IMG/VR virus record: IMGVR_UViG_3300031566_000021
From: a virus
Strand: one strand, 5' to 3'
DNA length: 64,000 bases
Shown here: positions 12,302-59,821 of the stretch, piece after piece
Layout: each line of letters starts with the position of its first letter
How positions within the stretch are numbered: the first letter of the stretch is position 1
Translations under genes and position numbers: made by a program
Notes under the pieces: generated by a model
The model's input: only the letters and a program-made list of their open reading frames with translations
What the model was told of the DNA's origin: nothing
The model's database searches: none

Positions 12302-13714
12302 ATGGCCTCAAGCCTTATCTCCCGAGCTCTACTCGCTGTCAAAGCTGGAATGTCGTTTGGTGGTGCACGAGATCTGTACTCCCAGTTTGGGTATCCGCAA
12401 AACCTTTTACACGACCAGCTTCTGGCTAAGTATCAGCGCCAAGACTTGGCTGCACGAGTCGTCGATATGCCCCCAGAGGAGATGTGGAGTCATCCCCCGA
12501 CTTTAAAAGGTCCGGAGAAGGCTATTAAGCCCTGGGAGGACTTCGTCAAGAAGATGGGCCTCTGGGACAAAGTCATCCAAGCAGACAAGCTATGCTCCTT
12601 TGGTGAGTTCTCCGTCCTATGGGTAGGAACATCAGGTTCAGCAAACACACCCACCACAAGAGGGAGAGATCTGGACGACTTTCTATACGTCCAAGCCTAT
12701 GGTGGGCAGAATGTGGAGATCAAGACCTTCGAGAACGATCCCACAAAGAGGCGCTACGGTCAGCCTCTGACATATCAAGTAACCCTTGGACCTAGAAATC
12801 AGATAAGAACTGTACCTGTCAGTCATACAAGGATCGTGCATATCGTGGATCGTCCCCTTCAGGGCCTCATGCTAGGAGAGCCTCGGCTCGCTCAAGTGTA
12901 CAACGTCCTGGATGACCTATTGAAGACGGCAGGTGGATCCGCAGAACTCTACTGGTTGACAGCCAATCGTGGTATGCAGGTGGATGTCGATAAGGACATG
13001 GAGCTCAATGAGGCCGATGCAACGGCGCTAGCTGATGAGTTGGATGAGTTCCAGCATCAGCTGAGAAGGTTCATCCGAACAAGAGGTGTACAGGTTAAAT
13101 CCCTTGGTGCCGACGCTACTGACCCGCGTGGAGTTTTCCAAGTTCTCCTGTCTGTGCTCAGTGGCGCAACGAGTATTCCCCAGAGGATCCTGATTGGGAG
13201 TGAAGCGGGTCAGTTGGCAAGTGAACAAGATCGTGCGAACTGGGCCGAATACATCAATCGCCGCAGAGCCGTGTTTGGCGAGCCCTTCGTCCTCAAGCCC
13301 ATCATCAAGTACCTAGAAGGGGTGAAATACCTCGATGAAGGCACCTGGGAAAAAGCCGAGTGGAAATGGCCTGAGTCTTTCCACATGTCGCCGTTGGAGG
13401 AAGGTCAGACGATGGCCGCAAAGGCGCGAGCTGTTGCCAATCTATCCAGACGCAACCAGTTTAACAACCCATTGGTTACGGACGAAGAGGTTCGTATATG
13501 GGTGGGTCTCCCAGAAGAAGTGGAAGGTACTCTCCCGGTACCGTATGTTGCTCCGCAACCGGACAATACAGACCCGAATAACGACGATGACAACGAGGAC
13601 GGGGATAACACGGGCGGAACGGGTCGAGCTCAGCCAGGTCGAACAGGTGGAGGCGAGAGGTCTCCAACAGTCCAAGAGACTCTCCCAGGAATTCGCCGGA
13701 TAAGAGAAGGGTAA
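12302..13714 (+). CDS. portal protein (DUF1073-type)
   Basis: Position after terL, ~470 aa, LAARVVDMPPEE and IPQRILIGSEAGQLAS patterns. Confidence 0.85.
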   Translation: MASSLISRALLAVKAGMSFGGARDLYSQFGYPQNLLHDQLLAKYQRQDLAARVVDMPPEEMWSHPPTLKGPEKAIKPWEDFVKKMGLWDKVIQADKLCSFGEFSVLWVGTSGSANTPTTRGRDLDDFLYVQAYGGQNVEIKTFENDPTKRRYGQPLTYQVTLGPRNQIRTVPVSHTRIVHIVDRPLQGLMLGEPRLAQVYNVLDDLLKTAGGSAELYWLTANRGMQVDVDKDMELNEADATALADELDEFQHQLRRFIRTRGVQVKSLGADATDPRGVFQVLLSVLSGATSIPQRILIGSEAGQLASEQDRANWAEYINRRRAVFGEPFVLKPIIKYLEGVKYLDEGTWEKAEWKWPESFHMSPLEEGQTMAAKARAVANLSRRNQFNNPLVTDEEVRIWVGLPEEVEGTLPVPYVAPQPDNTDPNNDDDNEDGDNTGGTGRAQPGRTGGGERSPTVQETLPGIRRIREG

Positions 13715-16481: not shown

Positions 16482-17474
16482 ATGAAGGATGCTCAGCAAC
16501 TCGATGCGTTGGTGCTGAACGAAGGCAGCGGCTTCGGATTTGGATCCGTCGCACAACGTCTCATGCAAAATGGGATGAATATCAACGCCCTACGCACCAA
16601 TGACGTCCTCCGCAAGGAGGAGTGGCTCCTGTTCGATCGCACAGTCGTGGAGATCGCACGGGCACGGCTACTGCTGGTAAGCGATCTCGTCACACGAGGT
16701 CTCACCGTTCCAATCCCGAATGCAATGGGTACGACGGTTATCCAGCATGAGACGTCCAGCGACATGACGGCGGCCAGCCTGACGATGTCAGGGCTTGCGG
16801 ACGCCGAGCGTGATCGACTGGAATTCGCGCAAGTCAACACGCCTCTGCCGATCGCGCACAAGGATTTCCAGGTCAGCGTTCGCAACCTTGAGTCCTCGCG
16901 TCGCCTCGGAATGCCGCTCGACACGTCAATGGCGGCTGTTGCCACTCGTAAGGTGGTGGATCTGCTCGAGAGCATCGTCATGAACGGTGCCACGATCACA
17001 TCCGGAGGTGGTTCGCTCTACGGTTATCGTACCCACCCGAACATCAATACGGGTTCGATTACCGCTTCCTGGTCGTCTGCAACCGGCGCCCAGGTCATGA
17101 CCGATGTTCTGGCCATGATTGCTGCTTTGCAAGCCGACAACATGTTCGGCCCGTACGTCATCTACGTCGACTACGCCGCGTACAACAACCTGTTGAACGA
17201 CTTCAAAGTCGAGAGCGACAAGACGATCCTGCAGCGCATCCTGGAGATTCCCGACGTTACGGCGGTTCGTCCGTCATCGAACGCCACGGCCGGGGAAGCC
17301 CTCATGGTGCAAATGAGCAGCGACGTTGTCGATCTGCTCGAGGGTATGCAGCCGACGACCGTCATGTGGGAAACCCATGGCGGGATGATGATCAACTTCA
17401 AGGTCATGGCAATCATGACGCCGCGCCTCAAGGCGGATCAAGAAGGTCGATCGGGGATCATCCTACTCAGCTAA
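16482..17474 (+). CDS. major capsid protein (HK97 fold, encapsulin/linocin-like)
   Basis: 330 aa, strong RBS and codon bias; LRKEEW..FD..V and PLPI.HKDF...R.L..SR...PLD patterns. Confidence 0.85.
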   Translation: MKDAQQLDALVLNEGSGFGFGSVAQRLMQNGMNINALRTNDVLRKEEWLLFDRTVVEIARARLLLVSDLVTRGLTVPIPNAMGTTVIQHETSSDMTAASLTMSGLADAERDRLEFAQVNTPLPIAHKDFQVSVRNLESSRRLGMPLDTSMAAVATRKVVDLLESIVMNGATITSGGGSLYGYRTHPNINTGSITASWSSATGAQVMTDVLAMIAALQADNMFGPYVIYVDYAAYNNLLNDFKVESDKTILQRILEIPDVTAVRPSSNATAGEALMVQMSSDVVDLLEGMQPTTVMWETHGGMMINFKVMAIMTPRLKADQEGRSGIILLS

Positions 17475-17792: not shown

Positions 17793-18170
17793 ATGCCAAG
17801 AACGGCAGAAGCTCAGGTTCAGAACCTTATTCAGGTTCCCAATGCTGACGTAGCGTTAGCGATGGATATTGCCGGGGCTATGGTTGACGAGATGTTACCG
17901 TCAACTCTGGGCCTGTCTGAAGTAGTCCTTACCAATATCGAGCTCTTCCTAGCTGCCCATGTCTACGAGCTGCAAACCAAAGATGGTGCACTTGCGGCTC
18001 AGACTATCGGTGAAGCTACCGAGCGGTATCACGATATCTTTGGTCCTGGCTTGTCTTCCACGAAGTACGGACAGATGGCCATTACGTTAGATACGACACT
18101 GACACTCGCAAGAGTGGCGGCAAATGTAGCAACCCCCAACAAGCAAGATGCACGATTCTTAGTCATATAG
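17793..18170 (+). CDS. head-tail adaptor (DUF4054-like)
   Basis: IELFLAAH and L.STKYGQ motifs, synteny. Confidence 0.75.
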   Translation: MPRTAEAQVQNLIQVPNADVALAMDIAGAMVDEMLPSTLGLSEVVLTNIELFLAAHVYELQTKDGALAAQTIGEATERYHDIFGPGLSSTKYGQMAITLDTTLTLARVAANVATPNKQDARFLVI

Positions 18171-18184
18171 TCAAGGAGACAGTC

Positions 18185-19798
18185 ATGACAGGTACAGCAC
18201 GCGGTAGTTTCATCGGGCGAGCCCCGACGGTTCTAATACAACCAGCTCCGCCGAAAAAGGGGAATGGTCAGCTGTTCGGCAATCCAGAGCAGTTGAAGTA
18301 CGAGAAGATGTGGGCCCACGAGCAATATCGGGCAGTAGCTCCGGGCGAAAACTGTGCTCAGCTTTTCCTGGCTGAAGCGCGTCCTCCTGCTGGGGCTCAT
18401 GTCATCGACTTCGGTTGCGGTACTGGACGAGGAGCTATCGCGCTCGCGATGTTCGGCAAAGTCAAGGTAACTCTGGTGGATTTCGCCATCAATTGCCTCG
18501 ATCCCTTCGTCTACAAGGCTCTATCGAATCAGGGTGACACGCTGAAATTCATCCAGGCAGACCTCGAAAAGCCGCTGCCTGTTGCTGCACAATATGGCTT
18601 CTGCACCGATGTGATGGAGCACATCCCCGAAGACAAGGTGGAGATCGTGCTCAAGAACATCATGAAGGCCGCGGAGTACGTGTTCTTCCAAATCAGTACC
18701 ACCGATGATGCCTGTGGAGTGCTAATCGGCGAGAAACTCCACCTTACAGTCAAGCCGCCTGCTTGGTGGTCCTTGAAGTTCCGGAACTTGGGAGCCCAAG
18801 TTAACTGGTACAAGGAGTACGACAACTGCGTGATGCTCTACGCTACGGCGTGGAATAGCGCCAGAGAGATCGCCATCCGCGGCACCTTGAACACGGTTAA
18901 GGAAAAGCTCATCGAGAACATCCAGCTCAGCACCAAGCGAGGCTGGCCTCAGATGATCCCTCACGATCGTCAGGATCGCCCCGCTCTGGTTTTGTGTGGT
19001 GGCCCATCCCTGAACGATTATGCAGACGAAATCCGGCAGAAGCGTGAAGGGGGACATTCCCTCATAACCGTTAATGGCGCCTACAAATGGGCCCTAGACC
19101 ACGGGATGGTCCCCTCTGCTCAGGTTATGCTGGACGGTCGAGAGTTCAACAAGCGATTCCTGGAGCCAATCGTCGAGAACTGCCACTATTTCATCGCGAG
19201 CCACTGCGACCCAGCAACCTTCGATATGGTTCCGAAGGGTAAGGGGCTCATCTGGCACTGCGTCGATAACGAGGAACTAGCTGCCCCTCTGAACGAGCAC
19301 TACGGAGAAGGCGCCTGGTTCTACGTCCCCGGCGGTTCCACAGTAGTCCTTCGTACTATCGTCCTGCTACGTATGCTCGGTGTATGGCGTCAAGAGCTCT
19401 ATGGCTTCGACTCCTGCCTGAAGGAGAGCTGGGTATGCCAACAGGCTGATGGCTCACTAGTCAAGCACGACACCCTTGGGCATATCCTCGAGTACAATAC
19501 CAAGGAAGAAGCGCAACAGGCTTCGGACACTCTATCGAACGATTTCGGAGTGCCGAATGTAGCAGTTTCCAAGTATGGACATCACGCCTACGAACAGAAG
19601 GAAAACGACGGACAAAGCGTGGTCAAGGTTACTTGTGGCGGAAGGATCTTCTACTGCAACACGTGGATGGTCTCTCAAGCACACGAGTTCATGGACCAGG
19701 TGAAGTTCATGGGGAACGAGGTTGAGTTAGCCGTCCATGGAGATGGCCTTATCGCGCACATCATCAAGACGGGCGCGGAACTACCTGACAAGGAGTAA
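18185..19798 (+). CDS. fusion of class I SAM methyltransferase and Maf/DUF115 (MptE-like) domain
   Basis: VIDFGCGTG, CTDVMEHIP, HLTV...WW; then VLCGGPSL, ITVNGA, GGSTV, LYGFDS. Confidence 0.75.
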   Translation: MTGTARGSFIGRAPTVLIQPAPPKKGNGQLFGNPEQLKYEKMWAHEQYRAVAPGENCAQLFLAEARPPAGAHVIDFGCGTGRGAIALAMFGKVKVTLVDFAINCLDPFVYKALSNQGDTLKFIQADLEKPLPVAAQYGFCTDVMEHIPEDKVEIVLKNIMKAAEYVFFQISTTDDACGVLIGEKLHLTVKPPAWWSLKFRNLGAQVNWYKEYDNCVMLYATAWNSAREIAIRGTLNTVKEKLIENIQLSTKRGWPQMIPHDRQDRPALVLCGGPSLNDYADEIRQKREGGHSLITVNGAYKWALDHGMVPSAQVMLDGREFNKRFLEPIVENCHYFIASHCDPATFDMVPKGKGLIWHCVDNEELAAPLNEHYGEGAWFYVPGGSTVVLRTIVLLRMLGVWRQELYGFDSCLKESWVCQQADGSLVKHDTLGHILEYNTKEEAQQASDTLSNDFGVPNVAVSKYGHHAYEQKENDGQSVVKVTCGGRIFYCNTWMVSQAHEFMDQVKFMGNEVELAVHGDGLIAHIIKTGAELPDKE

Positions 19799-19804
19799 GG
19801 AAAG

Positions 19805-20239
19805 ATGGCTGCAACAGCATGGGCGGTATACAACCAAGCGAAGCGCAAAATCGGGGATGGTGTCATTCAGCTGGGCACCGATATCTTCAAGGTGCAGCTG
19901 CACAAGAGCACCTCGAACGCGTCGGTCGCGACGCTATCCACGGCTGCCTCGGTCACCAACGAGGTAAACAACGCCAACGGCTACGTCACGGGCGGGCAAT
20001 CGCTCTTGACTCGGTCTTGGGTAGTTGGAGCGTCAGCAGGTCAGTACAAGTTCGATGCTGCCGATCCTCTCTGGACAGCAACTGGTGGCAATATCACCAG
20101 CATCATGTTCGCGCTGATCAAGAACTCAGCCGGCCAAGCGGTATGCTGGTCGAAGTTGACTGCAGCGGCGTTCGCGCTGACGCAGAACAACACGCTGACG
20201 ATCCAGATGCACGCGAACGGGATCTTCACGCTGGCGTAG
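19805..20239 (+). CDS. small structural protein (putative fibre anchor or decoration)
   Basis: TD.FKV.L...E....GY..GG..L...FDAAD..W...TIQ..A.GIF pattern of a recurrent phage family; terminator follows. Confidence 0.65.
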   Translation: MAATAWAVYNQAKRKIGDGVIQLGTDIFKVQLHKSTSNASVATLSTAASVTNEVNNANGYVTGGQSLLTRSWVVGASAGQYKFDAADPLWTATGGNITSIMFALIKNSAGQAVCWSKLTAAAFALTQNNTLTIQMHANGIFTLA

Positions 20240-20255
20240 CAGCGAGCATTCGGGC

Positions 20256-20285
20256 ACCGAGGGGCATATTGCTCCTCGGTTTCTC
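20256..20285 (+). terminator. probable intrinsic terminator
   Basis: accgagg-ggca-tat-tgct-cctcggt followed by ttct. Confidence 0.6.
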
Positions 20286-20408
20286 GACTAGTACGGCGAC
20301 ATAGTACGCTAGTACGCTAAACGACGGAACCGAACTTTAACGCACACTGAACAGACATACGGGACCAAGATCATGCCGGCAGCTAAGGTACCTCTCGAAC
20401 GGTAACGT

Positions 20409-21284
20409 ATGGCTATCGCCTTCAGATCATCCACCGAAGCCGGGACGGGAGCGGCAGCAGCTAGTCTCGCTGTCAACGTTCCTGCCGGTGTGCAGGACGA
20501 TGACCTGTTATTGTTGTACGGCGTAACAGCCGATGGCGACGACGGTGGCTTCAACACGCTCACCGGCTGGAACCAGATCGTCAACAACGTGTTGACCGGA
20601 GGTGCCGCGCCTTCTCCGCCGGGGATAACGGTCTGGTGGCGCATTGCTTCGAGCGAGCCTGCAAGCTACACGATTACCCCGTCATTCGGTTCTACGGGTA
20701 TCTGCGGAAAGATGCTCGCGTTCACCGGAGTCGATACGACGACACCGATTGATGTCACCACGGTCACGGCCACAGGTGACAGTACAAACGCGGACCCCGG
20801 CTCGATCGACTATCTGGACGCTGGTGCAACGATTGTCGTTTCCGCTGTATGGGATTCGGCAGGTGGTGACTTCACTTCCGTTCCATCTGGCTACACCGAT
20901 CCCGACACGCTGGGCGACATCGTTGCCAACGGCGGAGGTAATGGAGGTTCGCTTGCGTGTGCCTACGATCTGACGCCGGCCGCTGATCCAGAGAATCCGC
21001 CTGCGTTTACATCTGGTACCGAACAGTGGGTGTGCACCACAGTCGCGCTTCGTCCCGCTGTCGCATACACGACCGAGCAGGATAGCTTCCGCTTCTACGA
21101 CGACGGAACCGAGTCTGGCTCGACGGCGCTTGAAGCGCAGAACGTCGATCTCGGCATTGGAAAGGAGACGACGTTCCACCTCCGAGTCGGCGGACAGATG
21201 ACGGGTGATGCCCCGGCGATCTCGGCCGAGTTGCAATACAAGGAAACATCGGACGCCGCGAGCGAGTGGCGCAAGGTGCCGTAA
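20409..21284 (+). CDS. putative minor structural beta-sandwich protein
   Basis: VPAGVQDDDLLL...GW...VWWRIA..EPASYT...AFTGVD..PID pattern; Gly/Thr/Ala-rich. Confidence 0.65.
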   Translation: MAIAFRSSTEAGTGAAAASLAVNVPAGVQDDDLLLLYGVTADGDDGGFNTLTGWNQIVNNVLTGGAAPSPPGITVWWRIASSEPASYTITPSFGSTGICGKMLAFTGVDTTTPIDVTTVTATGDSTNADPGSIDYLDAGATIVVSAVWDSAGGDFTSVPSGYTDPDTLGDIVANGGGNGGSLACAYDLTPAADPENPPAFTSGTEQWVCTTVALRPAVAYTTEQDSFRFYDDGTESGSTALEAQNVDLGIGKETTFHLRVGGQMTGDAPAISAELQYKETSDAASEWRKVP

Positions 21285-21550
21285 TGGGCCAAGAGACACA
21301 AAAAGACGAGCCAATCTGGTACTACGAGTGGGACGTGGCCTCGAACGACCCCATTCGGTATGCAGGTGTCATTCGTGTCGTTGTTGAAACTGACAGGAAC
21401 GGCACCGAGCATTTGACGATCGACGACCCCAACGCTCCCGGCGGCAAGCGAAACATCAACAACGTGAAGAACATCGAGCAGTGGGACCACCGCAAAGACC
21501 TAAACGCTCAGAGCTACTGGGAACGCGCTGACGAGAGCTGGACACCGTAA
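21284..21550 (+). CDS. hypothetical acidic protein
   Basis: TAATG coupling at both ends. Confidence 0.65.
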   Translation: MGQETQKDEPIWYYEWDVASNDPIRYAGVIRVVVETDRNGTEHLTIDDPNAPGGKRNINNVKNIEQWDHRKDLNAQSYWERADESWTP

Positions 21551-24500
21551 TGGCCGTTCGCTTAAACACCGCCGCATCAAGCAATACCGATAGCTTCAGC
21601 TACTCGGTTAGCGCGGGAAACAATCGCTGCCTAATCGTCGGGATTACGCAGGAGGTTGCAAGTCCATCGCAGCCGACCGTTGCCTACGGCGGTCAGTCGA
21701 TGACGCATGTCGTTGGGATCGCGGTGGGTGATGCCACCGACCAGCGAGTTGATCTGTTCTTTCTGAATGACGCCGGCATTCAAGCGGCGAGCGGCACCAC
21801 GATTGTCGTCACGGGCGAGCCTGCGGCGTTCACGATCAATGCAGCTTCGTATGAGAACTGCGTACAAACCACGCCCACGGTCACCGACACACACGCCTCG
21901 ACCGGGGCGGGTACTACCACCCTCGACATCACGTCGTCAGACACGTCGGTTGCGGTGTGTCTCGGCGGCATGGGCAACTCTGGTACGGTCGCGTGGTCTG
22001 GCGGAGTTACCGAGCAGACCGAGCAAGTTGACGTTGGTGCGACTACGACTGGCTCGCTTGCTGATGAGGAGGTCACGACCGGCGCGGCGGAAAACTACGT
22101 AGGCACTTGGACTACGGCCAACCGGCGAGCGGGCTGCGCACTGATCCTTGCGAACCTGCCGGCGGAGGGAATCACAGGTGTCGTGCCGTCCGAGTTCGAC
22201 ATGGACACGGCCGATGTCGATGTCGATGGGCTGAACTTCGGAGCATCGCAAGGCTCAGCCACGGTCTACCTGTCGGATGCCAACACCCTCGCGGGGAGCG
22301 CGAATGAGGTAGACATCACCAGCGCGGTCAATACGTGGTCCGACACGCAGGTCAACCTCGATCTCACGCAGTTGTCCGCCGGAGAACTCGCCAGCCTTCA
22401 TACACTGGGGCCGGGGCAGCGGTTCGTCATCATCCTGACGGATGCTTCTGACGAGTACGGGTCTGCGGCGATCACGCTGCACCGCCCGCAAGGCTTCCAG
22501 ATGGTGTTGGGGGCAGCGACCCCAGGTACGACGACGCAGCGCCTCACTGGAATGTCCGGCACGTTCGGCGGTGGCCGAATCGAGGAGACGGCGGCCCAGA
22601 ACCCATCGACCACGAATACTGACGTTGCCAACAACGGCAACCGCGAGGACGTGTGGTCGATTGAGGCGAAGGTCAACTCGCGCGCGGTTCAATACGACTT
22701 CCGAGTCCTGTATGACGGTGAAGTTGCCGACACGATCACGCAGACGCCGCAGGTCACGATCTCCGCCGGGGAGAACATACCCGTCGGCGCAGGTGCACTT
22801 ACTCTGGTCGGTCATGCGCCGACTGCGTCCGTAGCTTCGAGTATTGCCGTCGACGCGGGCTCCGCGGCTATCACCGGCTGGGCGCCGACTGTGTCCGTAG
22901 CCTCGAGTATCGCCGTCGACGACGGCGCTCTAGCTCTAGTCGGTCTGGTACCGACTCTTGCTCTGTCCGATCATATCACGCGTGCCCCTGCAGAGGACGT
23001 ACTCGCATTCGGAGGATTAGTACCCTCCATCGTCATAGGAGTGGTCTTCACTCCGGGAGTGCCCGTTGTCCAGAAGTTGGGCGCTGTGGATATTGGCACC
23101 TTCGGGCTCCCCCTCGAGGGCACGTTTACCAAAGAGGGCACGGTGTTTCCCGTCAGCGTGCCTATCGTGCTCGATCATGTAGACTTCAACCTCAGGAAGG
23201 AAGGATCTCCCACAGGGAACCTCGTCATAGAGGTGTACCTCTGCAACGAGGGTAATAGCTATGTCGGCTATTACCCGGCGTACTTAGACAGCCCGGTTGC
23301 CACATCTACCACTACGTTGGACGTGTCTACTCTCACCGGCACGCTTACACTGTACACGCTAGATTTCGCCGGCGAGGTTCTGCCCCCCGGTATTTACGCG
23401 TTTGTAGCTACCTATAACGACGGCGACCCCGACAACTACGTTGAGACCCAGATATTCTTCAATAGAAATCCGAACGCTATAGGCGGCTACCAGCAGATTA
23501 TAGAGTACACAGAGCCTGACGATCCGTTTAGCTGGTATCCATCCTTCGGAGGGTGGGATTCAGGTACACAGCCGGCTACTTCAGACGGCACCGAGATGCT
23601 CGTCTTCGTCCGCGGGCTGAGCATCATGGGGCAGTTGCCCAGGCTGGTCGTAACTGAGCTTCTTCCTGTAGGAGGCGCTGGCACTATTACGATTGAAGGG
23701 CTAGCTCCGACACTATCGGACAGCTTGCACCCCAACATTGCGGTGGATAAGGCTGATCTCGTACTCGCCACCTACGCACCTACTCTGGACTTCAAGGACA
23801 AGTACGTCTTCCCCGATGCTGCCGAGCACGATTTTATACTGCATCCGCAGACAGTCGGCTTCTTTAATTTTATAGGTATAGACAGCCGCGGTGAGGTCTT
23901 TCGTAGTCCTGAGGGCGGCATATTGCGCCGCGTGGACTTCCTGCTGGCGAAGAACGGAGGGCCTGTAGGAACTGTTATCGCGCGCCTGTACGCGGCCGAC
24001 ACGGGGGACTTCGACGCGTTAACCGCTAACCCCGCTAACGGTGCGTCTCCGCTCGCCTCGTCGACGAATACCTTCGACGCTGCCACAGACATATCTTTAT
24101 CCGCGAATACATTCCGATTTGACTTCGCTGGGTACAGACTCGAGCCAAACACGCCGTACGCCATAGTGGTGGAGTTCACCGGTTCCGGCGTTGGCGACCA
24201 CCTCACGATGTATGTGTGGCAGCCAAAGACATTCCCTGGCTACCACACGAGGGGATTCCCCAGCGGGGCGTGGAATCAGGTTACCAACACGAATACCACT
24301 ATGCGGCTCGTCGTAGAGTCGCTACACATCTCTGGACAAACTCCTGTAGTCGGTATCAATCTAACTTCGATATCCCCCGCTCAGGATACTCTACTCTTCG
24401 CCGGCCTGGCACCATCGCTCCTGCTGCAGCCATCTCAGCCAAGCGAGGGTACACTAGTCTTCACGGGATTTGCTCCAACTGTACTCGCCGCCCCCGTTGT

Positions 24501-27500
24501 TAAGCCTGACGAGGGTATTCTCACACTCACGGGTTATGCTCCTGACGTCGGGATCATCTATATTACGGAGCCTGCTGAGGACACCTTAGTCCTTACTGGG
24601 GAGATACCAGTCTCGCTGGTTGGCGAGCGCGTGCGGCCAGGCGAAGATACGCTAGCACTGACAGGAGAAATACCCACTGTAGAGATCAGCTATCGGTTTG
24701 CTCCGGCGGAAGACGTACTTGCCCTCACTGGTGAAGTACCCAGTGTTGAGCTCGATTATACCTTAAGCCCTGCTGAAGATACACTTGCCTTCAGCGGGTT
24801 GGCTCCCTCGGTTGGGATCAGCTATTTCCTCTCGCCCGGAGTAGGTGCTCTCAATATCACACAACGGCAGCCGTATATCAAGCCGACGCTGATTGGTACG
24901 TATACCACGGCTCTTCGTCAGCAGTCCCTCGCTCAGAGCGACACCGTAGATATTCCAGAGGGCACCGAGCTAGTTATCGTGGCTGTGTCTTCGTGGAACT
25001 ACTTTACCGCAGGTTTAAAGAGAGAGGGCGCAGCCGTTCTTGGCGGAAAGGACATGCTGGACATTGCCAATCTGCCCCAGACTGGTAGTGGTGTACTGAA
25101 TGGCGAGATCGTTACTAAGATCGGGTATGCAACCAGCATCTGGATAAGCTATTTACTCAACCCCGCACCGGGGCCACAGACTCTGGCATACACGTGGAAT
25201 AGTAGCTACCACATTTCAGACCCGTCGTGGGATCTCATTTATCCAGACGAGGTGACATATCTGTTCTACGCAGGTATGCGCAAGGACGGTGTTGTCGTTC
25301 GCGATGTGTCGTATGCCAACGACGAGGTGCTTATTGATCTATGGGTGGAGGTCGCAGCGACCGTCGATTCGCGCGCTACTGACTTGGTCTGCGGGTTTCT
25401 CACGTCCTATAGCTGGGTCTGGAACGACTACGACCTGCGTCCTAGTGTCACCGAGAATATCCTCACAGACGAGGTGTACACCGGACAGACGGAGATAAGC
25501 CATACCGGCCCGACTCTTGACCGTGGTGGAGAGTCGGGTGGTATCACCGTGGGTGTGGTAGACGCCCCCGGTAGTACCACCTCCACCATGAAGGGTGTAG
25601 CAGACTACACGCAGCTAGTTGTGCTGTCGCTGCGCGGAGCGAACGATCAGGACAGGTTCCTATACGGACCGGCTACGGCTGTAGCTACCTTCACCGGGGA
25701 GATTCCCACAATTGTCACCACAGGAGTAGCTCTGACGATACCTGTGGATGCCGGGATACTCGGAATATCCTCGGACGTCGTCGTCTCGGAGGCGGGTCCG
25801 TCCGTCGTAGCTCCTGTCGATGCTGCTCTCGCTATCGCAGGGGCGATCCCGACGGTGTTTGTCAGTACGTTCACGCTGCTCGGCACGGTTCTAATTGACC
25901 AATGTCTCGAGCTAATCCTCGTTGATGAGGCTACCGGCGTAGTCCCCGGAGCTCCTGTCACGGTTACCAAGTCCGTCACGGTGCCGGTTGGTACGACTCT
26001 AGCGATTGTCTTCTCCGCCCAGTATAACGCGGTAGAAAATATCTCTGTCACGGGTATTTCGCTCGGCGGCCAAGCTCTGGAGACGGCTTCCCTTGATGGG
26101 GCGCTGGTGGTTCTTTTTTGGGGTCCGTATATAGCGTATCTACGCAGTCCGCCCACCGGTGCGCAGGATCTGGCTGTGTCGTACAACGTCCCGATCTCGC
26201 AGTCGCCCCACATCCACGTAGCCTTCTACTCGGGTACTCACCCTACCTTTGCCCCGCGCGGAGTAGCTTTTGACCGCCACGGCTATTTCCCGGGCGAGGC
26301 AGGGTCGGTAGATATCGCCTCGAGGTCCGACGATCTGGTCGTGGCCGGGATAGTGGGGTGGTACGGGTTTACTGACGTCGCTCCTGCAGGGTCGAATCAG
26401 CACGTAATAGCACAGGCAAACTCAGGACCTAGGTACTGGCCCTTCACCTTCGACGGCTTCGACGCCTACAACGACCCCCACTGGGACGGGTACGAGCACA
26501 CCTACTCGTCCTTCATAAGGGAGTACCCGCCCGCCGACGGTCTATCTACCATCCACAATACAGTCTCCGGATCTGAGGGCTTCACGACTATCGCCGCGTT
26601 GGCGTTCCCGTCTATCAACTCGACGGAGCAGGTGTTCTGGGTGGCTCCGGATACGCTGGCCTTCACAGGGGAGATCCCGTCCTTACTAGTCGGTGAGATT
26701 GTTGTTCCGGACGAAGATACCCTCGTCCTTACTGGCCAGATCCCAGTAGTAGACGTCCAGTCGTTCGACAAGGTATTCGAGCCTGCTGAAGATATACTAG
26801 TTATTGCTGGTGAAGTTCCTGTTGTCCAAGCCGGACAAGGGGCTTTCCCACAACCAGGCGTTGGTACACTAGCTATCACAGGTCTCGCGCCTAGTATCGA
26901 GATCAGCTATACCTTCAAGCCTGCTGAAGATACCCTACAGATTACAGGAGAGCAGCCCACAGCTTCGGTTAATCTCCTGGTCGCTCCGGGCCCTGACACC
27001 CTCCTCCTCGTAGGCGAGCAACCCATTGTCTCCCAGGGCCTCGTCTATACTCCGGGTGCCGGGGCCCTCCAGCTAACTGGTCAACAACCAAGTGCGGAAA
27101 TTGACTACACCATTGAAGTGCCGGTTGGTAGTTTGGCCTTCACTGGTCGTATCCCCGTATCGCAATCCGGAGATGACCAAACATCCCAGCCGGATGAAGA
27201 TGTACTCCAGATTATAGGCCTCGTCCCATCGGTCGAGGTTAGCTATCGCTTCACACCGGCAGAAGATACACTATCGCTCACCGGCCTCACACCTCTATGC
27301 ACGATCCAGCTCTACACATTCCCAGGAGTAGCTGCACTCGCGTTCACAGGTCAGGAGCCTAGCAACGATGTAAGCTACACCTTTACTCCGGGCGAAGACA
27401 CCCTCGACTTTACGGGTCTCGTCCCAGTTGTAGCTATCGGCGTTATTCGTCAGCCGGGAGAAGATACCCTAGCCCTCACAGGCCAACAGCCGAGCGTAGG

Positions 27501-28773
27501 AATCGACTACGTCTTCTCGCCGGCTAACGATGCGCTGGTCTTTACGGGTGAGGTACCGATTGCCCAGTCGGGAGATGACCGGACGGCTCAGCCGAATGCA
27601 GGCACCTTAGCTATTACAGGCCTAGCACCCTCGGTTGAGATTAGCTACAGGTTCGTTGTACCTAATGATGTGCTTTCCATCTCGGGCGAGCAGCCTAGTG
27701 TGGAGATCGACTATACGATCGCCGTTGGAGAGGATACACTAGCGCTGACAGGTGAAATCCCAGCGGTCAATGCGACCACGGGAGTAACGGAACAACCTGG
27801 TGCGGGTGTTCTTGTTATTACCGGCGAAATACCCGTTGCGGCTAGTACTGAGAACCAGTATGTAGCCCCGGGCGACGGCGCGCTATCGCTGAGTGGAGCC
27901 GTTAGTACAGTCGTAGTAACGGACAATCGAGACGCACAGCCTGATGCTGGCGTTCTAAACATAGTAGGACTTGCGCCGACGATTGGTGTTGGTATCGTCC
28001 GCATACCTGATAATGGCATTTTAGACCTAGTTGGTCAGACGCCTGTAGTTGCTCGGACTGAACACCAATATCCAGCACCAGGAGTTGGAACTCTTGATCT
28101 TACCGGATTTACACCATCAACGGCCGGAGAAGTCTTCGCCAGTCCTGGGACAGATGTTCTTTCCATCGTTGGTCAGGAACCAGTACTATTCCGCACAGAA
28201 GGCGTCTGGGAGCTGCCGGGAGTTGGTACTGCGAACATTACAGGTCAGATACCTGTACTCGAGCTATCTGACTCCTGGGTTAACTTCCCGGATACAGGTA
28301 GTATTACATTCGCCGGGTACAATCCAGTACCATCTACTAGCAACAATCTACAGCTCGGTCCAGACAGGGATATCCTGGCTATTACAGGCCAGCAGCCGAA
28401 TATCGTAATAGACCACAGGTTCTATCCTGCAAGTGATACGCTAGCCCTCACAGGACAGCCAGTAGAAATAGCACGCGTCTTCAAAGTCCCCGCTGGGGCC
28501 TTAAGCTTCGTCGCATATGTACCCGAACTGCTCGTCACGGGCGATAGAAAGGCTCTCCCGTACGTCGATCATCTCCGGATTACCGGTCTAGCTCCAGTCG
28601 CTTACGTAACGCCAGTCGACGTAATAGTGTATGTAGACATGGACTTCGCGTCCGACATTGTTAAGGGCATGATATTTGCTGATCCTGCCCTACCAGTTAA
28701 CGAGGTTACCTTCGACCAGTACGACGGAGCGGACCCCGGAATTAAACAGACTATCACTTTAAGCGGGAGTTAG
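21550..28773 (+). CDS. giant repeat-containing fibre-like structural protein (2407 aa)
   Basis: Dozens of ~23-26-aa repeats P.(E/D/G).L.(L/F/I)TG..P.V with four inserted aromatic-rich globular domains. Confidence 0.8.
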   Translation: MAVRLNTAASSNTDSFSYSVSAGNNRCLIVGITQEVASPSQPTVAYGGQSMTHVVGIAVGDATDQRVDLFFLNDAGIQAASGTTIVVTGEPAAFTINAASYENCVQTTPTVTDTHASTGAGTTTLDITSSDTSVAVCLGGMGNSGTVAWSGGVTEQTEQVDVGATTTGSLADEEVTTGAAENYVGTWTTANRRAGCALILANLPAEGITGVVPSEFDMDTADVDVDGLNFGASQGSATVYLSDANTLAGSANEVDITSAVNTWSDTQVNLDLTQLSAGELASLHTLGPGQRFVIILTDASDEYGSAAITLHRPQGFQMVLGAATPGTTTQRLTGMSGTFGGGRIEETAAQNPSTTNTDVANNGNREDVWSIEAKVNSRAVQYDFRVLYDGEVADTITQTPQVTISAGENIPVGAGALTLVGHAPTASVASSIAVDAGSAAITGWAPTVSVASSIAVDDGALALVGLVPTLALSDHITRAPAEDVLAFGGLVPSIVIGVVFTPGVPVVQKLGAVDIGTFGLPLEGTFTKEGTVFPVSVPIVLDHVDFNLRKEGSPTGNLVIEVYLCNEGNSYVGYYPAYLDSPVATSTTTLDVSTLTGTLTLYTLDFAGEVLPPGIYAFVATYNDGDPDNYVETQIFFNRNPNAIGGYQQIIEYTEPDDPFSWYPSFGGWDSGTQPATSDGTEMLVFVRGLSIMGQLPRLVVTELLPVGGAGTITIEGLAPTLSDSLHPNIAVDKADLVLATYAPTLDFKDKYVFPDAAEHDFILHPQTVGFFNFIGIDSRGEVFRSPEGGILRRVDFLLAKNGGPVGTVIARLYAADTGDFDALTANPANGASPLASSTNTFDAATDISLSANTFRFDFAGYRLEPNTPYAIVVEFTGSGVGDHLTMYVWQPKTFPGYHTRGFPSGAWNQVTNTNTTMRLVVESLHISGQTPVVGINLTSISPAQDTLLFAGLAPSLLLQPSQPSEGTLVFTGFAPTVLAAPVVKPDEGILTLTGYAPDVGIIYITEPAEDTLVLTGEIPVSLVGERVRPGEDTLALTGEIPTVEISYRFAPAEDVLALTGEVPSVELDYTLSPAEDTLAFSGLAPSVGISYFLSPGVGALNITQRQPYIKPTLIGTYTTALRQQSLAQSDTVDIPEGTELVIVAVSSWNYFTAGLKREGAAVLGGKDMLDIANLPQTGSGVLNGEIVTKIGYATSIWISYLLNPAPGPQTLAYTWNSSYHISDPSWDLIYPDEVTYLFYAGMRKDGVVVRDVSYANDEVLIDLWVEVAATVDSRATDLVCGFLTSYSWVWNDYDLRPSVTENILTDEVYTGQTEISHTGPTLDRGGESGGITVGVVDAPGSTTSTMKGVADYTQLVVLSLRGANDQDRFLYGPATAVATFTGEIPTIVTTGVALTIPVDAGILGISSDVVVSEAGPSVVAPVDAALAIAGAIPTVFVSTFTLLGTVLIDQCLELILVDEATGVVPGAPVTVTKSVTVPVGTTLAIVFSAQYNAVENISVTGISLGGQALETASLDGALVVLFWGPYIAYLRSPPTGAQDLAVSYNVPISQSPHIHVAFYSGTHPTFAPRGVAFDRHGYFPGEAGSVDIASRSDDLVVAGIVGWYGFTDVAPAGSNQHVIAQANSGPRYWPFTFDGFDAYNDPHWDGYEHTYSSFIREYPPADGLSTIHNTVSGSEGFTTIAALAFPSINSTEQVFWVAPDTLAFTGEIPSLLVGEIVVPDEDTLVLTGQIPVVDVQSFDKVFEPAEDILVIAGEVPVVQAGQGAFPQPGVGTLAITGLAPSIEISYTFKPAEDTLQITGEQPTASVNLLVAPGPDTLLLVGEQPIVSQGLVYTPGAGALQLTGQQPSAEIDYTIEVPVGSLAFTGRIPVSQSGDDQTSQPDEDVLQIIGLVPSVEVSYRFTPAEDTLSLTGLTPLCTIQLYTFPGVAALAFTGQEPSNDVSYTFTPGEDTLDFTGLVPVVAIGVIRQPGEDTLALTGQQPSVGIDYVFSPANDALVFTGEVPIAQSGDDRTAQPNAGTLAITGLAPSVEISYRFVVPNDVLSISGEQPSVEIDYTIAVGEDTLALTGEIPAVNATTGVTEQPGAGVLVITGEIPVAASTENQYVAPGDGALSLSGAVSTVVVTDNRDAQPDAGVLNIVGLAPTIGVGIVRIPDNGILDLVGQTPVVARTEHQYPAPGVGTLDLTGFTPSTAGEVFASPGTDVLSIVGQEPVLFRTEGVWELPGVGTANITGQIPVLELSDSWVNFPDTGSITFAGYNPVPSTSNNLQLGPDRDILAITGQQPNIVIDHRFYPASDTLALTGQPVEIARVFKVPAGALSFVAYVPELLVTGDRKALPYVDHLRITGLAPVAYVTPVDVIVYVDMDFASDIVKGMIFADPALPVNEVTFDQYDGADPGIKQTITLSGS

Positions 28774-28775
28774 AA

Positions 28776-29087
28776 ATGGCACACCACGACGCGGTTTCGC
28801 AGGACGCTAAAATCATCCTGCGCGTCACCTGCACGAAGAAAAGCGGTGGGGTGATCAACCTCACTGGAGGCTCAGCTACGCTCCGGTGGAAAGTTGGAAC
28901 TGCCGCTGCGGTCGAGAAAGCAATGACAATCGTTGATGCCATAAATGGTGTCGTCGAGTACGAATTCCAGACTGACGAGCTGGAGGCTCCGATGATGCGG
29001 TATGAGGTCACGGTTACTCTAGCGGATGCGACGGTAGTTACATCCATCCATGAGCATAGACTGTCCGTAAGAGAGAGGTTAGCCTAA
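28776..29087 (+). CDS. BppU N-terminal-like Ig-fold structural protein
   Basis: INLTG.S.TL...IVDA.NGVVEY...D...YEVTVT pattern. Confidence 0.6.
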   Translation: MAHHDAVSQDAKIILRVTCTKKSGGVINLTGGSATLRWKVGTAAAVEKAMTIVDAINGVVEYEFQTDELEAPMMRYEVTVTLADATVVTSIHEHRLSVRERLA

Positions 29088-42103: not shown

Positions 42104-42553
42104 ATGTATGATCAATTAGGTTTAACCTTCATGCAGGTCTTAGGAGTGTCTTCGGCGGTTATCATATTCGTGATAGCTGTTACTCTGGTTCTACACCGAG
42201 ACTACGATGATGGCCTAATCGGTAAACTAGCTCTAAGTGGTCTTGTCATTGCTACGTTGGGCCCCTTGTGGGAGCACTTCCATGCTGGGATACGTTATAA
42301 CTTGCTACAGACAACCCTCCTGTTGTACGTGTCCATAGCCCTCTTCCTAATGAGACATGTTTGGCGCTTCAACAGGTACCTAAAGTGCGGAGCCTTCTCG
42401 TGGAGCTCTAGTAATATCCAGCGGAGGAGGATAGCTAGGGAGGCTAAAGGTGAAACTAAGAAACGACCAAGCTATTTCAACATGGGCAAACAGATTGTCT
42501 GGACTGCTCTTGTAATCGCTGGCCTGTACCTAATTACCGAAGGAGGCTGGTAA
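42104..42553 (+). CDS. membrane protein (holin or antiholin candidate)
   Basis: 3-4 hydrophobic segments. Confidence 0.6.
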   Translation: MYDQLGLTFMQVLGVSSAVIIFVIAVTLVLHRDYDDGLIGKLALSGLVIATLGPLWEHFHAGIRYNLLQTTLLLYVSIALFLMRHVWRFNRYLKCGAFSWSSSNIQRRRIAREAKGETKKRPSYFNMGKQIVWTALVIAGLYLITEGGW

Positions 42554-43050
42554 TGCGACAGATCAAGGCAATCGTTATTCACTGTGCCGCGACCCCAGAT
42601 GGCGATGCTAGGTTCGATCGTACCTGGTGTGATATACTACACCGTAAGAAGGGCTGGCGTATGATCGGCTACCACCGCTACATCGAGATTAGCGGGTTGG
42701 TTGTCGTCGGGCGTAAGCTCAAAGAGATCGGCGCACACGTGTCAGGACAGAACAGCCGCACAGTTGGAATCTGCATAGCTGGCATGAGTCGCTTCACGCT
42801 CCCTCAATGGGAGTCACTTGCCAACCAGGTGAACGATTTACAAGACCTGTATCCTACTGCGGAGGTGAAAGGACACAGGGACTACTCCCCGGATCTCAAT
42901 GGCGACGGTATCATCGAGCCGTGGGAGTACATGAAAGAGTGTCCATGCTTCGATGTAGCAACCTGGCTTGCCGGAGCTAAGCAACCTCTAGCGGGTCATA
43001 TATTCGTCCCTGATAACCAAGGAGAAGATAATGTCCCTCAAGTCCCTTAA
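42553..43050 (+). CDS. N-acetylmuramoyl-L-alanine amidase (T7 lysozyme-like endolysin)
   Basis: IVIHC, IGYH, GAHV.G.N..TVGIC, GHRD, K.CPCFDV zinc ligands. Confidence 0.92.
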   Translation: MRQIKAIVIHCAATPDGDARFDRTWCDILHRKKGWRMIGYHRYIEISGLVVVGRKLKEIGAHVSGQNSRTVGICIAGMSRFTLPQWESLANQVNDLQDLYPTAEVKGHRDYSPDLNGDGIIEPWEYMKECPCFDVATWLAGAKQPLAGHIFVPDNQGEDNVPQVP

Positions 43051-43210
43051 GACTAGCTGGACCGCATGGTGGAACAAGTACCTATCGCTGGATGGGACAG
43101 TCGATTCATACCTCATGCGGTTTATCAGCTGGAAGTACTCGACAGGTATCGTCGTAGTGATTCTGATCCTTGCAGCCATCGGGGCAGTAGTGATCTCGAA
43201 GTCGGGCTGA
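43031..43210 (+). CDS. 59-aa single-pass membrane protein (not in ORF track)
   Basis: AAGGAG RBS; MSLKSLKTSWTAWWNKY...GIVVVILILAAIGAVVISKSG. Confidence 0.55.
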   Translation: MSLKSLKTSWTAWWNKYLSLDGTVDSYLMRFISWKYSTGIVVVILILAAIGAVVISKSG

Positions 43211-43258
43211 AGTAGCCTCTAGTTATCTTAGTCATGCACCAGTCAAGGAGTCAATCAG

Positions 43259-43909
43259 ATGCAAGTTGCAACCAGAGTACAGATGGTCGATATCATACCG
43301 GAAAGCGAGTATGTCATCGATCAGTACCTTAGCCATTTGAACGAGGCGTTTGAGCGCTTCGAGGTCAACACGCCTTTAAGGCAGGCGGCTTTCATTGCCC
43401 AGATCGGCCATGAGAGTATTAGGATGACCCAGATCGAGGAGAATCTGAACTACTCCGCGAATGGGTTACTTCGGACGTTTCCTGACTACTTCACACCGGA
43501 GTCCTCGAAGGAGTTTGCATACAAGCCGATGCGGATTGCTAATCGGGTGTATGCTAACCGAGGCGGTAATGGTCCTGAGGATTCGGGCGACGGCTGGAGA
43601 TATCGTGGTAGAGGTCTCATCCGGATCCACTACCAAAGAGCCTACATGCTTGCGAGTAAGAGGCTGACTGGTAAGCCGAACTTCTTTACCGACGATCCCA
43701 ATCTGGTTTTCCAGCCTGAGTGGTCTGTTAGAACGGCGTTCGACTTCTGGGAGGCCAATGAGCTCACTCCTTATGCCGACCGAAACTCGGCTATCGAGAT
43801 GCGCAACATGACTCGTAAGATTAACCGGGGACTTCGAGGATTAGACGATCGTCTGTTCTTGTGGCGTCGTGCTAAGGACATCTTCGGCGCTCCCCCAGAA
43901 GAGGAGTAA
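43259..43909 (+). CDS. glycoside hydrolase family 19 endolysin-like protein
   Basis: AAFIAQIGHES, EENLNYS, IANRVYANR.GNG, GDGWRYRGRGL. Confidence 0.88.
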   Translation: MQVATRVQMVDIIPESEYVIDQYLSHLNEAFERFEVNTPLRQAAFIAQIGHESIRMTQIEENLNYSANGLLRTFPDYFTPESSKEFAYKPMRIANRVYANRGGNGPEDSGDGWRYRGRGLIRIHYQRAYMLASKRLTGKPNFFTDDPNLVFQPEWSVRTAFDFWEANELTPYADRNSAIEMRNMTRKINRGLRGLDDRLFLWRRAKDIFGAPPEEE

Positions 43910-43914
43910 TCGTC

Positions 43915-44568
43915 ATGTTCGGATTTGGAATAGGTGAGATACTTACCATCTTCGGTGGTGGGGCTGCCGCTCTTGTCCCCAGTATCATTGGGAAGTTCTT
44001 CGTTGGTGGTGGTGCGACCTTCCCTATACTCATAGTCGTAGGACTATTGGGTGCTGCCGGAGGGTGGTATGTCACGAAGGCGTTCTGGAATGCCAGTGAA
44101 AAGGCGGCTGTGGAAATGGCCCTTGCGGATAGAGAGGTTCGTTTCCATACAGTCATCCAAACCGAGTATGTCTTCAAAGACAGGGTCAAGAAGGTATACG
44201 TAAAGGGAGAGGAGATTATCCGAAATGTTCCCGTCATCATTACCGAGAAGGTTGAGAAAGCTTGCCCTACTGGCCTCCCTAATGGTTATGTTAGGGTGCA
44301 CGACGGTGCCGCTCGAAACGAAGCTACCAGTGGCGCCACCGACACTGACGGAGATCCCGCAGGAGTTACGCTTACTCAAGCCGGACAAACTGTCGGAGAA
44401 AACTACAGGTCGTACAACGTCTGTCGAGAGCAAGTGATTGGCTGGAACGCTTTCTACACGTGTCTCCGCAAGCTAGGATACGAAGCTGACGAGAAGGATG
44501 TTATATCCTGTATCAAGGCTGAAAGTAACCTGCTGGACAGGGGGCTAGGAACACTAGATTCCCGTTGA
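43915..44568 (+). CDS. Rz: inner-membrane spanin (Rz-like)
   Basis: N-terminal TM, C..P.GYVRVHDGAA, NY...C; hosts an embedded lipoprotein gene. Confidence 0.75.
   Translation: MFGFGIGEILTIFGGGAAALVPSIIGKFFVGGGATFPILIVVGLLGAAGGWYVTKAFWNASEKAAVEMALADREVRFHTVIQTEYVFKDRVKKVYVKGEEIIRNVPVIITEKVEKACPTGLPNGYVRVHDGAARNEATSGATDTDGDPAGVTLTQAGQTVGENYRSYNVCREQVIGWNAFYTCLRKLGYEADEKDVISCIKAESNLLDRGLGTLDSR
44225..44437 (+). CDS. Rz1: outer-membrane lipoprotein spanin (Rz1-like), embedded in +1 frame
   Basis: Basic N-region RRLRK, hydrophobic core, LG|C lipobox-like site, Pro-rich mature part. Confidence 0.7.
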   Translation: MFPSSLPRRLRKLALLASLMVMLGCTTVPLETKLPVAPPTLTEIPQELRLLKPDKLSEKTTGRTTSVESK

Positions 44569-54414: not shown

Positions 54415-55134
54415 ATGGACACAACTACCAAGGCCTACGTACTGCTCTCAGGCGGAGTAGATTCATCTACCTGTCTGGGATTCGCTATACGAGAGGTCGG
54501 ACGTCCTCTTGTTACGGCGTACTCCGTCGACTATGGTCAGCGGCACGTTAAGGAAATGGATCACGCAAAGAAGGTTGCCGCCTACTTCGATGTTCCTCAC
54601 ATAGTCTTGGCGCTCCCGGGTATTCCAAAAGTCATGCTGACGGATCCTGAAGCGGAAGTACCAAATGCTGCGTACGCGGACCTTAAGGGGGTTTCACCAA
54701 CATACGTTCCATTCCGAAATGGTCAGCTGATTTCAAGACTAGCTGGAGTAGCTGCTCACGACATCGAGCAACACAACCAGAAGTCGGAGTTCTACGGAAC
54801 GGACGAAAGATGGAAGGGCACATTGTACTTCGGTGCGCATGCGGAAGATGCTGCCGGAGATGCTTATCCGGATTGTAGGTTCGATTTCGTAGGCTCGATG
54901 GCAGCTGCTGTGTACATCGGGTCATATCATTCGCTCCGCCTTCGTGCTCCGCTCATCGAGATGTTCAAGGATGACATCATCTTGGCTGGGATCAAGCTCG
55001 GAGTTCCTTATCACCTGACATGGTCCTGTTACAAAGGCGAGGAGCTTCACTGTGGAACCTGTCCCACCTGCCGAGCAAGAAAAGACGGATTCCGAAAAGC
55101 CGGATTCCCCGACCCCACTCACTACGCCGTCTGA
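54415..55134 (+). CDS. queC: 7-cyano-7-deazaguanine synthase
   Basis: LLSGGVDS, YVPFRN, YPDCR, TWSCY...HCGTCPTC. Confidence 0.95.
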   Translation: MDTTTKAYVLLSGGVDSSTCLGFAIREVGRPLVTAYSVDYGQRHVKEMDHAKKVAAYFDVPHIVLALPGIPKVMLTDPEAEVPNAAYADLKGVSPTYVPFRNGQLISRLAGVAAHDIEQHNQKSEFYGTDERWKGTLYFGAHAEDAAGDAYPDCRFDFVGSMAAAVYIGSYHSLRLRAPLIEMFKDDIILAGIKLGVPYHLTWSCYKGEELHCGTCPTCRARKDGFRKAGFPDPTHYAV

Positions 55135-55284
55135 AAAGCCGACGAAGGTAACAGTACCTCTTATGCCCCGATTTATGGGTGTAGGAGGATTTTCGATTAA
55201 GCTGATGACGGTCCAAGTTCATATGGCCATGCGAGATTGGGCGATTTGGGCTCCGCGTCTGGAAAAGGAAAGGAAGGATAAGAA

Positions 55285-55791
55285 ATGATCACAGCAGAGC
55301 GATACCACGACATCTCTTGCGGGCATCGAGTCTTTGGGCACGAGAGCAAGTGTGCTCATCTTCACGGCCACAACTACCGCATCCATTTTAGGTGCGCCGT
55401 ACCAGCTCTCGATAAGGTCGGGAGAGTGATTGACTTCAGCGTCATGAAGTCCGAGCTGTGTATGTGGGTGGAGGACAACTGGGACCACAAGTTCCTTCTG
55501 TGGCAAGAAGACGATTGGGGTACTACCCTATTCGACTTGGATCCTACTCTCGTCATCCTCCCATTCAATCCGACAGCTGAGAATATGGCTAAGCATCTCG
55601 TAGAGATTGTCGGCCCACTACAGCTGCGGCATTCGGATGTGAACCTAATCTCCTGTACCGTCGAAGAGACCAGGAAGTGCGGAGCTACCTATCTTTGGAG
55701 TGGACCACTCGAGGCTCTGGAAAGCATTAAGGCGCGTGCTCGAGAGTCCGAGAGGAAGTCCTTGGAGGTGGCAAATGCCCAAAAAGGCTAA
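55285..55791 (+). CDS. queD: 6-carboxytetrahydropterin synthase
   Basis: CGHRV...C.HLHGHNY, NPTAENMA, VEET. Confidence 0.92.
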   Translation: MITAERYHDISCGHRVFGHESKCAHLHGHNYRIHFRCAVPALDKVGRVIDFSVMKSELCMWVEDNWDHKFLLWQEDDWGTTLFDLDPTLVILPFNPTAENMAKHLVEIVGPLQLRHSDVNLISCTVEETRKCGATYLWSGPLEALESIKARARESERKSLEVANAQKG

Positions 55792-56407: not shown

Positions 56408-56411
56408 TAAG

Positions 56412-56456
56412 AGCATCATAAGCCCCTTGATGACCCATATCGAGGTATGCTATAAT
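56412..56456 (+). promoter_or_regulatory. promoter with AGCATCA box variant
   Basis: AGCATCA 56412-56418, 8 nt, TTGATG, 18 nt, TATAAT 56451-56456. Confidence 0.75.
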
Positions 56457-56478
56457 TATAGAAAGGAGGCTTTCTCGA

Positions 56479-59801: not shown

Positions 59802-59821
59802 CTAACTGAAGGCAGAGCCAC

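Follow-up and report, generated by a model that had tools for sequence, protein, structure and literature searches.

The acceptors of Maf glycosyltransferases are host flagellins, and some glycosyltransferases of phages are known to modify the host surface. Maf enzymes carry a degenerate methyltransferase-like N-terminal domain and a helical C-terminal domain that resembles flagellin chaperones (PMC11339370). They accept CMP-Kdo and CMP-Neu5Ac, and their activity requires E324 and D415 and, in CbMaf, also a conserved Ser located 23 residues before the second acid (10.1101/2020.06.03.131540). In the literature searched, virion glycosylation of tailed phages is documented only for mycobacteriophages, in which phage-encoded glycosyltransferases act on virion proteins; the targets are capsid and tail-tube subunits (Freeman et al. 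2023, PMC10527164, as cited in PMC12619734). In chlorovirus PBCV-1, the glycosyltransferase–methyltransferase fusion A064R builds and methylates the capsid glycan (PMC9614988). In the chain-like fibres of phages GP4 and A1002, bead dimers are threaded on a rope; the threading relies on beta-sheet augmentation in A1002 (PMC13730344), and this paper mentions no modification of the A1002 fibre.

We analysed a window of 64,000 nucleotides (IMG/VR virus record IMGVR_UViG_3300031566_000021), in which a sequence-only reading had placed a methyltransferase–Maf/DUF115 fusion gene among the neck genes. The open reading frame at 18185-19798 (plus strand) encodes 537 amino acids, starts with ATG downstream of an AAGGAG ribosome-binding site and is separated by 6 bases from the next gene. 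Its ribosome-binding site, Pfam domains and relatives established it as a real and conserved fusion gene, and the motifs noted earlier were all in place (DFGCGTG at residues 75-81, GGPSL at 272-276, GGSTV at 383-387 and GFDS at 407-410). The AF2 model consisted of two domains (pLDDT 92.5), with low confidence in the first 30 residues. At least 1562 relatives of the 537-aa enzyme were found, the best 120 of which were 42-63% identical, most of them over more than 90% of the length. The features of the enzyme and of the genes that follow it, all on the plus strand, are as follows.

18185-18250, plus strand: N-terminal arm (residues 1-22), one degenerate rope repeat, from its motif, a PSSM and a complex model
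18281-18853, plus strand: class I SAM-dependent methyltransferase domain (residues ~33-223), from PF13649 and invariant SAM-motif residues
18407-18427, plus strand: SAM motif DFGCGTG, from the sequence
18860-19798, plus strand: Maf-type (PF01973/DUF115) glycosyltransferase-like domain (residues ~226-537), from Pfam, profile alignment and fold
19133-19135, 19409-19411 and 19583-19585, plus strand: D317, D409 and H467, respectively, from profile alignment or conservation
19805-20239, plus strand: 144-aa (~145-aa) bead protein, GP4 gp80-like, from phrog_644 (E 3e-19) and a fold match
20409-21284, plus strand: 291-aa fibre-module protein with one rope-like repeat near residue 266
21550-28773, plus strand: 2407-aa protein, inferred rope, in which a 22-24-aa repeat occurs 42 times and globular domains are inserted
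28776-29087, plus strand: 103-aa protein, uncertain candidate for a fibre-to-neck adaptor (weak BppU_N match, E 0.002)

The enzyme gene follows the major capsid gene (16482-17474) and a gene at 17793-18170 whose product has a weak DUF4054 adaptor-like match (E 0.011), and it precedes the block at 19805-28773. Thus, the placement originally described was correct as to these neighbours, but not as to a distance of 35 kb from the DNA-metabolism genes: the nearest of these, a primase-like gene at 44669, is about 25 kb from the enzyme gene, and it is queC that lies 35 kb off. This gene belongs to a 7-deazaguanine DNA-modification module at 54415-60900 (queC, queD, folE and queE), which also includes a UDG-fused DNA polymerase A gene (57279-59801). 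The downstream genes had also been described as Ser/Thr-rich; their Ser/Thr content is indeed 17-20%, but this is not distinctive, with ordinary tail genes of the same phage at 16-19%. We rejected Ser/Thr richness as support for glycosylation, as the median content was 27% in beads without the enzyme versus 24% in beads with it. The tail tip of the source phage is GTA-like (DUF2460, BR0599 and Rcc01698-like proteins), which suggests a proteobacterial, Gram-negative host. The lysis region (42553-44568) contains an amidase gene and a second, lysozyme-like ORF without a Pfam match, both candidate endolysins, as well as a spanin-like ORF. NCBIfam gave no curated name, three different queries found no cultured phage with the transferase (only methyltransferase-domain matches were returned), and our search of the literature on phages and Maf or nonulosonates found no description of this phage enzyme family.

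The C-terminal domain of the enzyme matched PF01973 (Maf_flag10/DUF115) over residues 261-413 with 48.3 bits against a cut-off of 34.6, and 25 of 25 relatives also scored above this cut-off. In profile comparisons, its best solved match was Maf (5MU5; profile positions 23-192, 170 positions, E 4-5e-4), a remote similarity with an identity of about 15%. Archaeal MptE (6-hydroxymethylpterin diphosphokinase, 8SD5) shares the Pfam family and the first nucleotide-binding motif; in contrast to Maf, its alignment was weaker and partial, covering positions 17-87 of 265 (~70 positions) with E 0.1-0.18, and relatives of the phage enzyme lack a folate or pterin context. The automatic name 'MptE-like' given to these phage proteins is probably misleading. 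In the remote alignment to 5MU5 (E 5e-4), E324 fell on D317, T392 on T386 and D415 on D409, and the His-His motif of Maf fell on H466-H467. D317, D409 and H467 were invariant in 117 of 117 homologues; T386, which matches the conserved Maf Ser by spacing, was Thr in 116 and Ser in one. The DUF115 domain is thus nearer to Maf than to MptE and keeps the catalytic residues of Maf, in line with the original assignment. Structure prediction followed by a fold search, the check proposed earlier, ranked 5MU5 first among 48,161 chains (Z 21.1, 330 residues aligned); the match spanned both domains, and its rmsd of 15.6 resulted from a differing domain orientation. The whole protein was used in this search and the lists were dominated by methyltransferases, so that the absence of CstII, GT29 and MptE from them is no evidence.

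The features shared with Maf (M. magneticum 5MU5, CbMaf and GkMaf) are the two catalytic acids within a PF01973 domain, a preceding Rossmann/methyltransferase-like domain, solubility and, as proposed below, a Ser/Thr acceptor on a filament subunit before its assembly. Unlike Maf, the phage enzyme has an intact SAM motif and an N-terminal rope-like arm, and it ends with the transferase domain: there is no C-terminal helical-bundle (FliS/flagellin-like) domain, and 5MU5 was matched only up to residue 499 of the 632 modelled. It also differs in being phage-encoded, without flagellin or nonulosonate biosynthesis genes beside it; the context consists of phage structural genes. On these sequence and model comparisons, the phage enzyme would work like Maf without being a canonical member, as it lacks the helical domain and the flagellar context. 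No CMP-sugar synthetase was found in 22 viral records of relatives, so any such donor would be host-derived; because the similarity to Maf is remote, the donor could also differ. The viral clusters also include relatives with GT2 domain fusions.

The N-terminal part of the enzyme matched Methyltransf_25 (PF13649) over residues 73-161 with E 1e-8, above the cut-off. It has the hallmarks of a class I methyltransferase, namely a Rossmann fold, a glycine-rich motif I (D75/G77/G79/G81) and an acidic motif II (D99), and D75, G77, G79, G81, D99, D142, E145 and H146 were invariant in 117 sequences. Fold searches gave Z scores of 17-19 to many class I methyltransferases; no solved subfamily stood out, and the domain fitted N-, O- and C-methyltransferases equally well. 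Both fusion orders (methyltransferase–transferase and transferase–methyltransferase) exist. Since the methyltransferase was fused, separate or missing across loci, and dispensable in some clades, the transferase and the small bead gene constitute the core of the system. In some homologues the methyltransferase domain was tandemly duplicated ahead of the transferase (P0003, P0004; L010:10001-11986), and the 874-aa homologue P0043 contained an intein with a LAGLIDADG domain; it interrupts the active-site motif of the methyltransferase immediately ahead of the residues that correspond to C140-H146.

The gene directly downstream of the enzyme encodes a protein that we propose, from its predicted fold, to be a dimeric bead of a chain-like fibre and the putative docking partner and acceptor of the enzyme. 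A Foldseek search with its model ranked the GP4 fibre I protein gp80 (8JOU_a) first (probability 0.99, E 0.019, TM 0.50). By VIA, gp80 was second (Z 9.4, rmsd 3.0 over 117 residues), behind a Klebsiella phage baseplate/sheath chain (9F4A_AY, Z 12.7). The likeness to gp80 emerged from the fold search: the bead profile gave no match to PDB sequences, a scan with the single protein as query gave none, and PF23140 was weakly matched by one of 26 bead family members. The 2407-aa protein, to judge from its 42 repeats, would be the rope that threads the bead dimers; in many loci the bead gene is followed by a relative of this protein with 4-30 repeats, and the pairing of repeat protein and bead is seen whether or not the enzyme is present. 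The 291-aa protein between them had no family match in Pfam, PHROG or NCBIfam and may also dock on the bead dimer via its single repeat. As a possible Gp77, the 103-aa protein had no BLAST match and a Gp77-like profile hit at only E 0.01 among seven proteins, which makes it a weak candidate for this adaptor and the only one in the window. Gp77 (PF23148) adjoins the enzyme in relatives and was carried by 5 of 19 of them.

This module thus shares with the chain-like fibres of GP4 (gp80, 8JOU), VP1 (gp11) and A1002 (gp40/gp41) a bead of ~140 amino acids with the same fold, an adjoining repeat protein and, in several relatives, Gp77-like adaptors. In contrast, no such enzyme was seen in the fibre region of GP4, whose candidate rope, gp79, has a different repeat, and the putative rope described here is distinguished from those of GP4-type fibres by its 42 repeats and inserted domains. 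Mycobacteriophages (Ogopogo, Kersh, Kostya, Courthouse; ~200 records; L128:6001-6432, L281-L329) were also found to encode a homologue of the bead, named only as a hypothetical protein; its gene adjoins minor tail proteins that carry the rope repeat of the window, and no transferase is present. These mycobacteriophages probably have undescribed chain-like fibres.

The association of the enzyme with the bead gene was consistent. In 114 loci examined, the enzyme gene was surrounded by structural genes whose head and tail types are unrelated; it therefore travels with the fibre module across unrelated backgrounds, which agrees with the virion-module context suggested earlier. The giant fibre that had been suspected as its companion was replaced in this role by the small bead gene, the invariant partner: a bead gene was present in 43 of 43 de-replicated loci with the same methyltransferase–transferase order, usually directly downstream. 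In the reverse test with the bead as query, 41 of 44 bead loci held the transferase, and the remaining three ended within 118 bases upstream. These counts are not phylogenetically independent. The reverse-order clade (transferase, then methyltransferase) had neither arm nor bead gene and belonged to a different structural module after the capsid genes. In this clade the gene is immediately preceded by the presumed major capsid gene and one for ~170 amino acids (L105, L107-L109, L111-L113, L115-L117 and L006-L008), and a capsid or cement protein may serve as the acceptor. Two further loci deserve mention: P0115, with Methyltransf_24, B12 radical-SAM and TPP-dependent genes 6-11 kb downstream, and L349, with a CxxCxxCC (PF03692) gene at 12676-13008, two genes past the bead gene. 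These genes may encode further tailoring enzymes.

We compared the bead sequences for positions that differ with the presence of the enzyme. Position 119 was Ser or Thr in 47 of 47 enzyme-linked beads versus 1 of 14 others, 10 of which have Asp, and Ser at S49 and S108 was likewise enriched in enzyme-linked beads. Position 119 is a glycosite lead only, since the two groups are separate clades and a Ser/Thr/Asp residue fits a turn cap.

The part overlooked by the sequence-only reading is the rope-like arm at the N-terminus of the enzyme. Its motif (hydrophobic-x-G-x-x-P-x-V-x-I) occurs in the G..P.V-type form in 98 of 115 homologue arms. When these 115 arms were scored with a PSSM built only from 180 rope repeats, their median was 8.8, compared with -4.2 for shuffled arms, -6.3 for the rest of the proteins and 17.9 for true rope repeats, and 80% of them exceeded the 95th percentile of the shuffles. 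A score of at least 5 was reached by 26 of 43 fused forms (five of which are cut by contig ends) and by 6 of 14 transferase-only forms beside a bead gene, versus 0 of 11 reverse-order forms, all of which lack a bead. In the bead-linked branch in which the transferase is alone or accompanied by a separate methyltransferase gene, 0 of 8 forms scored as high, and this branch has no arm. When a tree was built from the transferase domain, three transferase-only genes nested within the fused clade (100/99 support); these have lost the methyltransferase, and their transferase directly follows an arm-like N-terminus that is degenerate in the same way as that of their fused sister. That the arm is retained in methyltransferase-less forms places it outside the methyltransferase fold.

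Modelling predicts that the arm binds the bead dimer. When residues 1-32 were modelled together with two beads, on alignments made in the present analysis, the complex scored 0.86, compared with 0.32 for the best of three controls; of the reference pairs, 58 of 80 solved complexes attained the mark set for this score, as did 2 of 110 mismatched ones. At least 98% of contacts recurred between runs, and the pLDDT of the partner was at least 77. In the model, residues 1-22 contact both protomers, and the arm crosses the two-fold of the bead dimer. The confident score may reflect likeness to solved rope–bead fibres.

We consider it a little better than an even chance that the protein is a bead-decorating O-glycosyltransferase of the Maf fold, whose arm docks it on unassembled beads and which transfers a host CMP-activated ulosonic acid to Ser/Thr, with optional methylation. 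According to this mechanism, residues 1-22 would occupy the rope-binding groove across a free bead dimer, as suggested by sequence likeness and the predicted docking, and the arm would stand in for the role that the C-terminal helical domain is thought to have for flagellin in Maf. The PF01973 domain, judging by its fold and catalytic residues, would then, in the cytoplasm, move an ulosonic acid from host CMP-Kdo or a CMP-nonulosonate onto Ser/Thr residues in the bead or elsewhere in the fibre. In the weakest of the steps, the fused methyltransferase might methylate the new sugar as an optional tailoring. Finally, better-matching rope repeats would take the place of the arm and string the modified dimers into neck fibres; the resulting coat, acidic and methyl-capped, could alter adhesion, protease resistance or host recognition. 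Such a reaction would share with mycobacteriophage virion glycosylation a phage glycosyltransferase acting on a virion protein; no PF01973 enzyme was found in cultured mycobacteriophages, and the homologous bead genes there have none beside them. With chlorovirus A064R/A061L it would share a viral glycosyltransferase–methyltransferase fusion and an O-methylated sugar on a virion glycan. The chlorovirus case differs in involving a eukaryotic virus, rhamnosyltransferases of other families and a capsid N-glycan, and is thus an analogy, not a homology.

The same docking and virion target might serve another chemistry: the PF01973 domain might transfer a different group from its nucleotide-activated form, either a neutral sugar or a unit linked through phosphate or phosphonate, the methyltransferase might act on the protein itself at Lys, Glu or the N-terminus instead of on a sugar, or both. 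The identity to Maf of only ~15%, the inclusion of a kinase-type enzyme in PF01973, the equal match of N-, O- and C-methyltransferases and the position of one relative near TPP-dependent and B12 radical-SAM genes would all fit this possibility, and methylation of a tail protein by a host enzyme is reported to be needed for infectivity (PMC13445384). However, the Maf catalytic acids and the subsequent His-His motif are retained, and the GT2-fused relatives among the viral clusters point to glycan synthesis; we regard a different chemistry as unlikely, though with an appreciable share of the probability. The confidently predicted binding of the arm could instead make it a permanent virion tether, with the protein either acting as a head that binds sugars, such as those of nonulosonate-coated flagella or of LPS, or being delivered to the host surface. 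The late structural operon in which the gene lies is compatible with this, as is the single repeat of the 291-aa neighbour, which indicates that single-repeat proteins may be fibre attachments; moreover, no anchoring rope was seen in VP1 (PMC13730344). Against this, the arm in the model crosses the dimer two-fold, the expected rope site, so that arm and rope would compete, the SAM-binding and catalytic residues are invariant, an intein interrupts the active-site motif of the methyltransferase in one relative, and both SAM and CMP-sugars are found in the cytoplasm. A tether is, on this evidence, quite improbable.

That the enzyme modifies host flagellin, pilin, LPS or capsule against superinfection, with its adjacency to the bead gene reflecting late expression only, would agree with the flagellin acceptors of Maf and with the existence of surface-altering phage glycosyltransferases. 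The Maf-type helical C-terminal domain is missing, though, the bead gene pairing is strict in both directions and a rope-like arm only makes sense for a phage partner, making this explanation very improbable. We find scarcely credible a role as an MptE-like pterin diphosphokinase, or in DNA-base tailoring tied to queC/queD/folE/queE, which the name of the Pfam family and the preQ0 pathway of the source genome might bring to mind. MptE was aligned only over the first 70 profile positions (E 0.1), the neighbours are structural genes in every clade, and near-complete relatives lack QueC (0 of 9) and FolE (0 of 10). QueC was found in none of 22 viral records of relatives and FolE in none of 19, both occurring only in the source window. 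We therefore rejected a link of the enzyme to the preQ0 genes of the window, which appear unrelated to it; a pterin kinase or DNA role, raised at the outset as what would speak against a virion function, is unlikely in the absence of co-occurrence with pterin or 7-deazaguanine genes.

For the bead-decorating glycosyltransferase that we favour, the predicted arm would have consequences beyond this locus. It would offer a clear substrate-recognition mechanism for a Maf-fold enzyme, for which no acceptor sequon is known, make enzyme and acceptor a two-gene kit amenable to testing in laboratory E. coli without the phage, and be a possible short docking tag for glyco-engineering. The enzyme family has more than 1500 metagenome members, with none found in culture. 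We regard as plausible, at somewhat less than an even chance, a widespread, hitherto undescribed phage system in which a Maf-derived enzyme captures beads through an N-terminal arm that mimics a repeat of the phage's own rope, attaches to them a host ulosonic acid (for example Kdo or pseudaminic acid), caps this sugar with a methyl group and passes the beads on to the rope. If so, many environmental phages would cover one particular fibre subunit with acidic sugars taken from the host, and thousands of uncultured phages would bear sialylated-like beaded fibres. These findings suggest an unstudied route by which phages sugar-coat their fibres.
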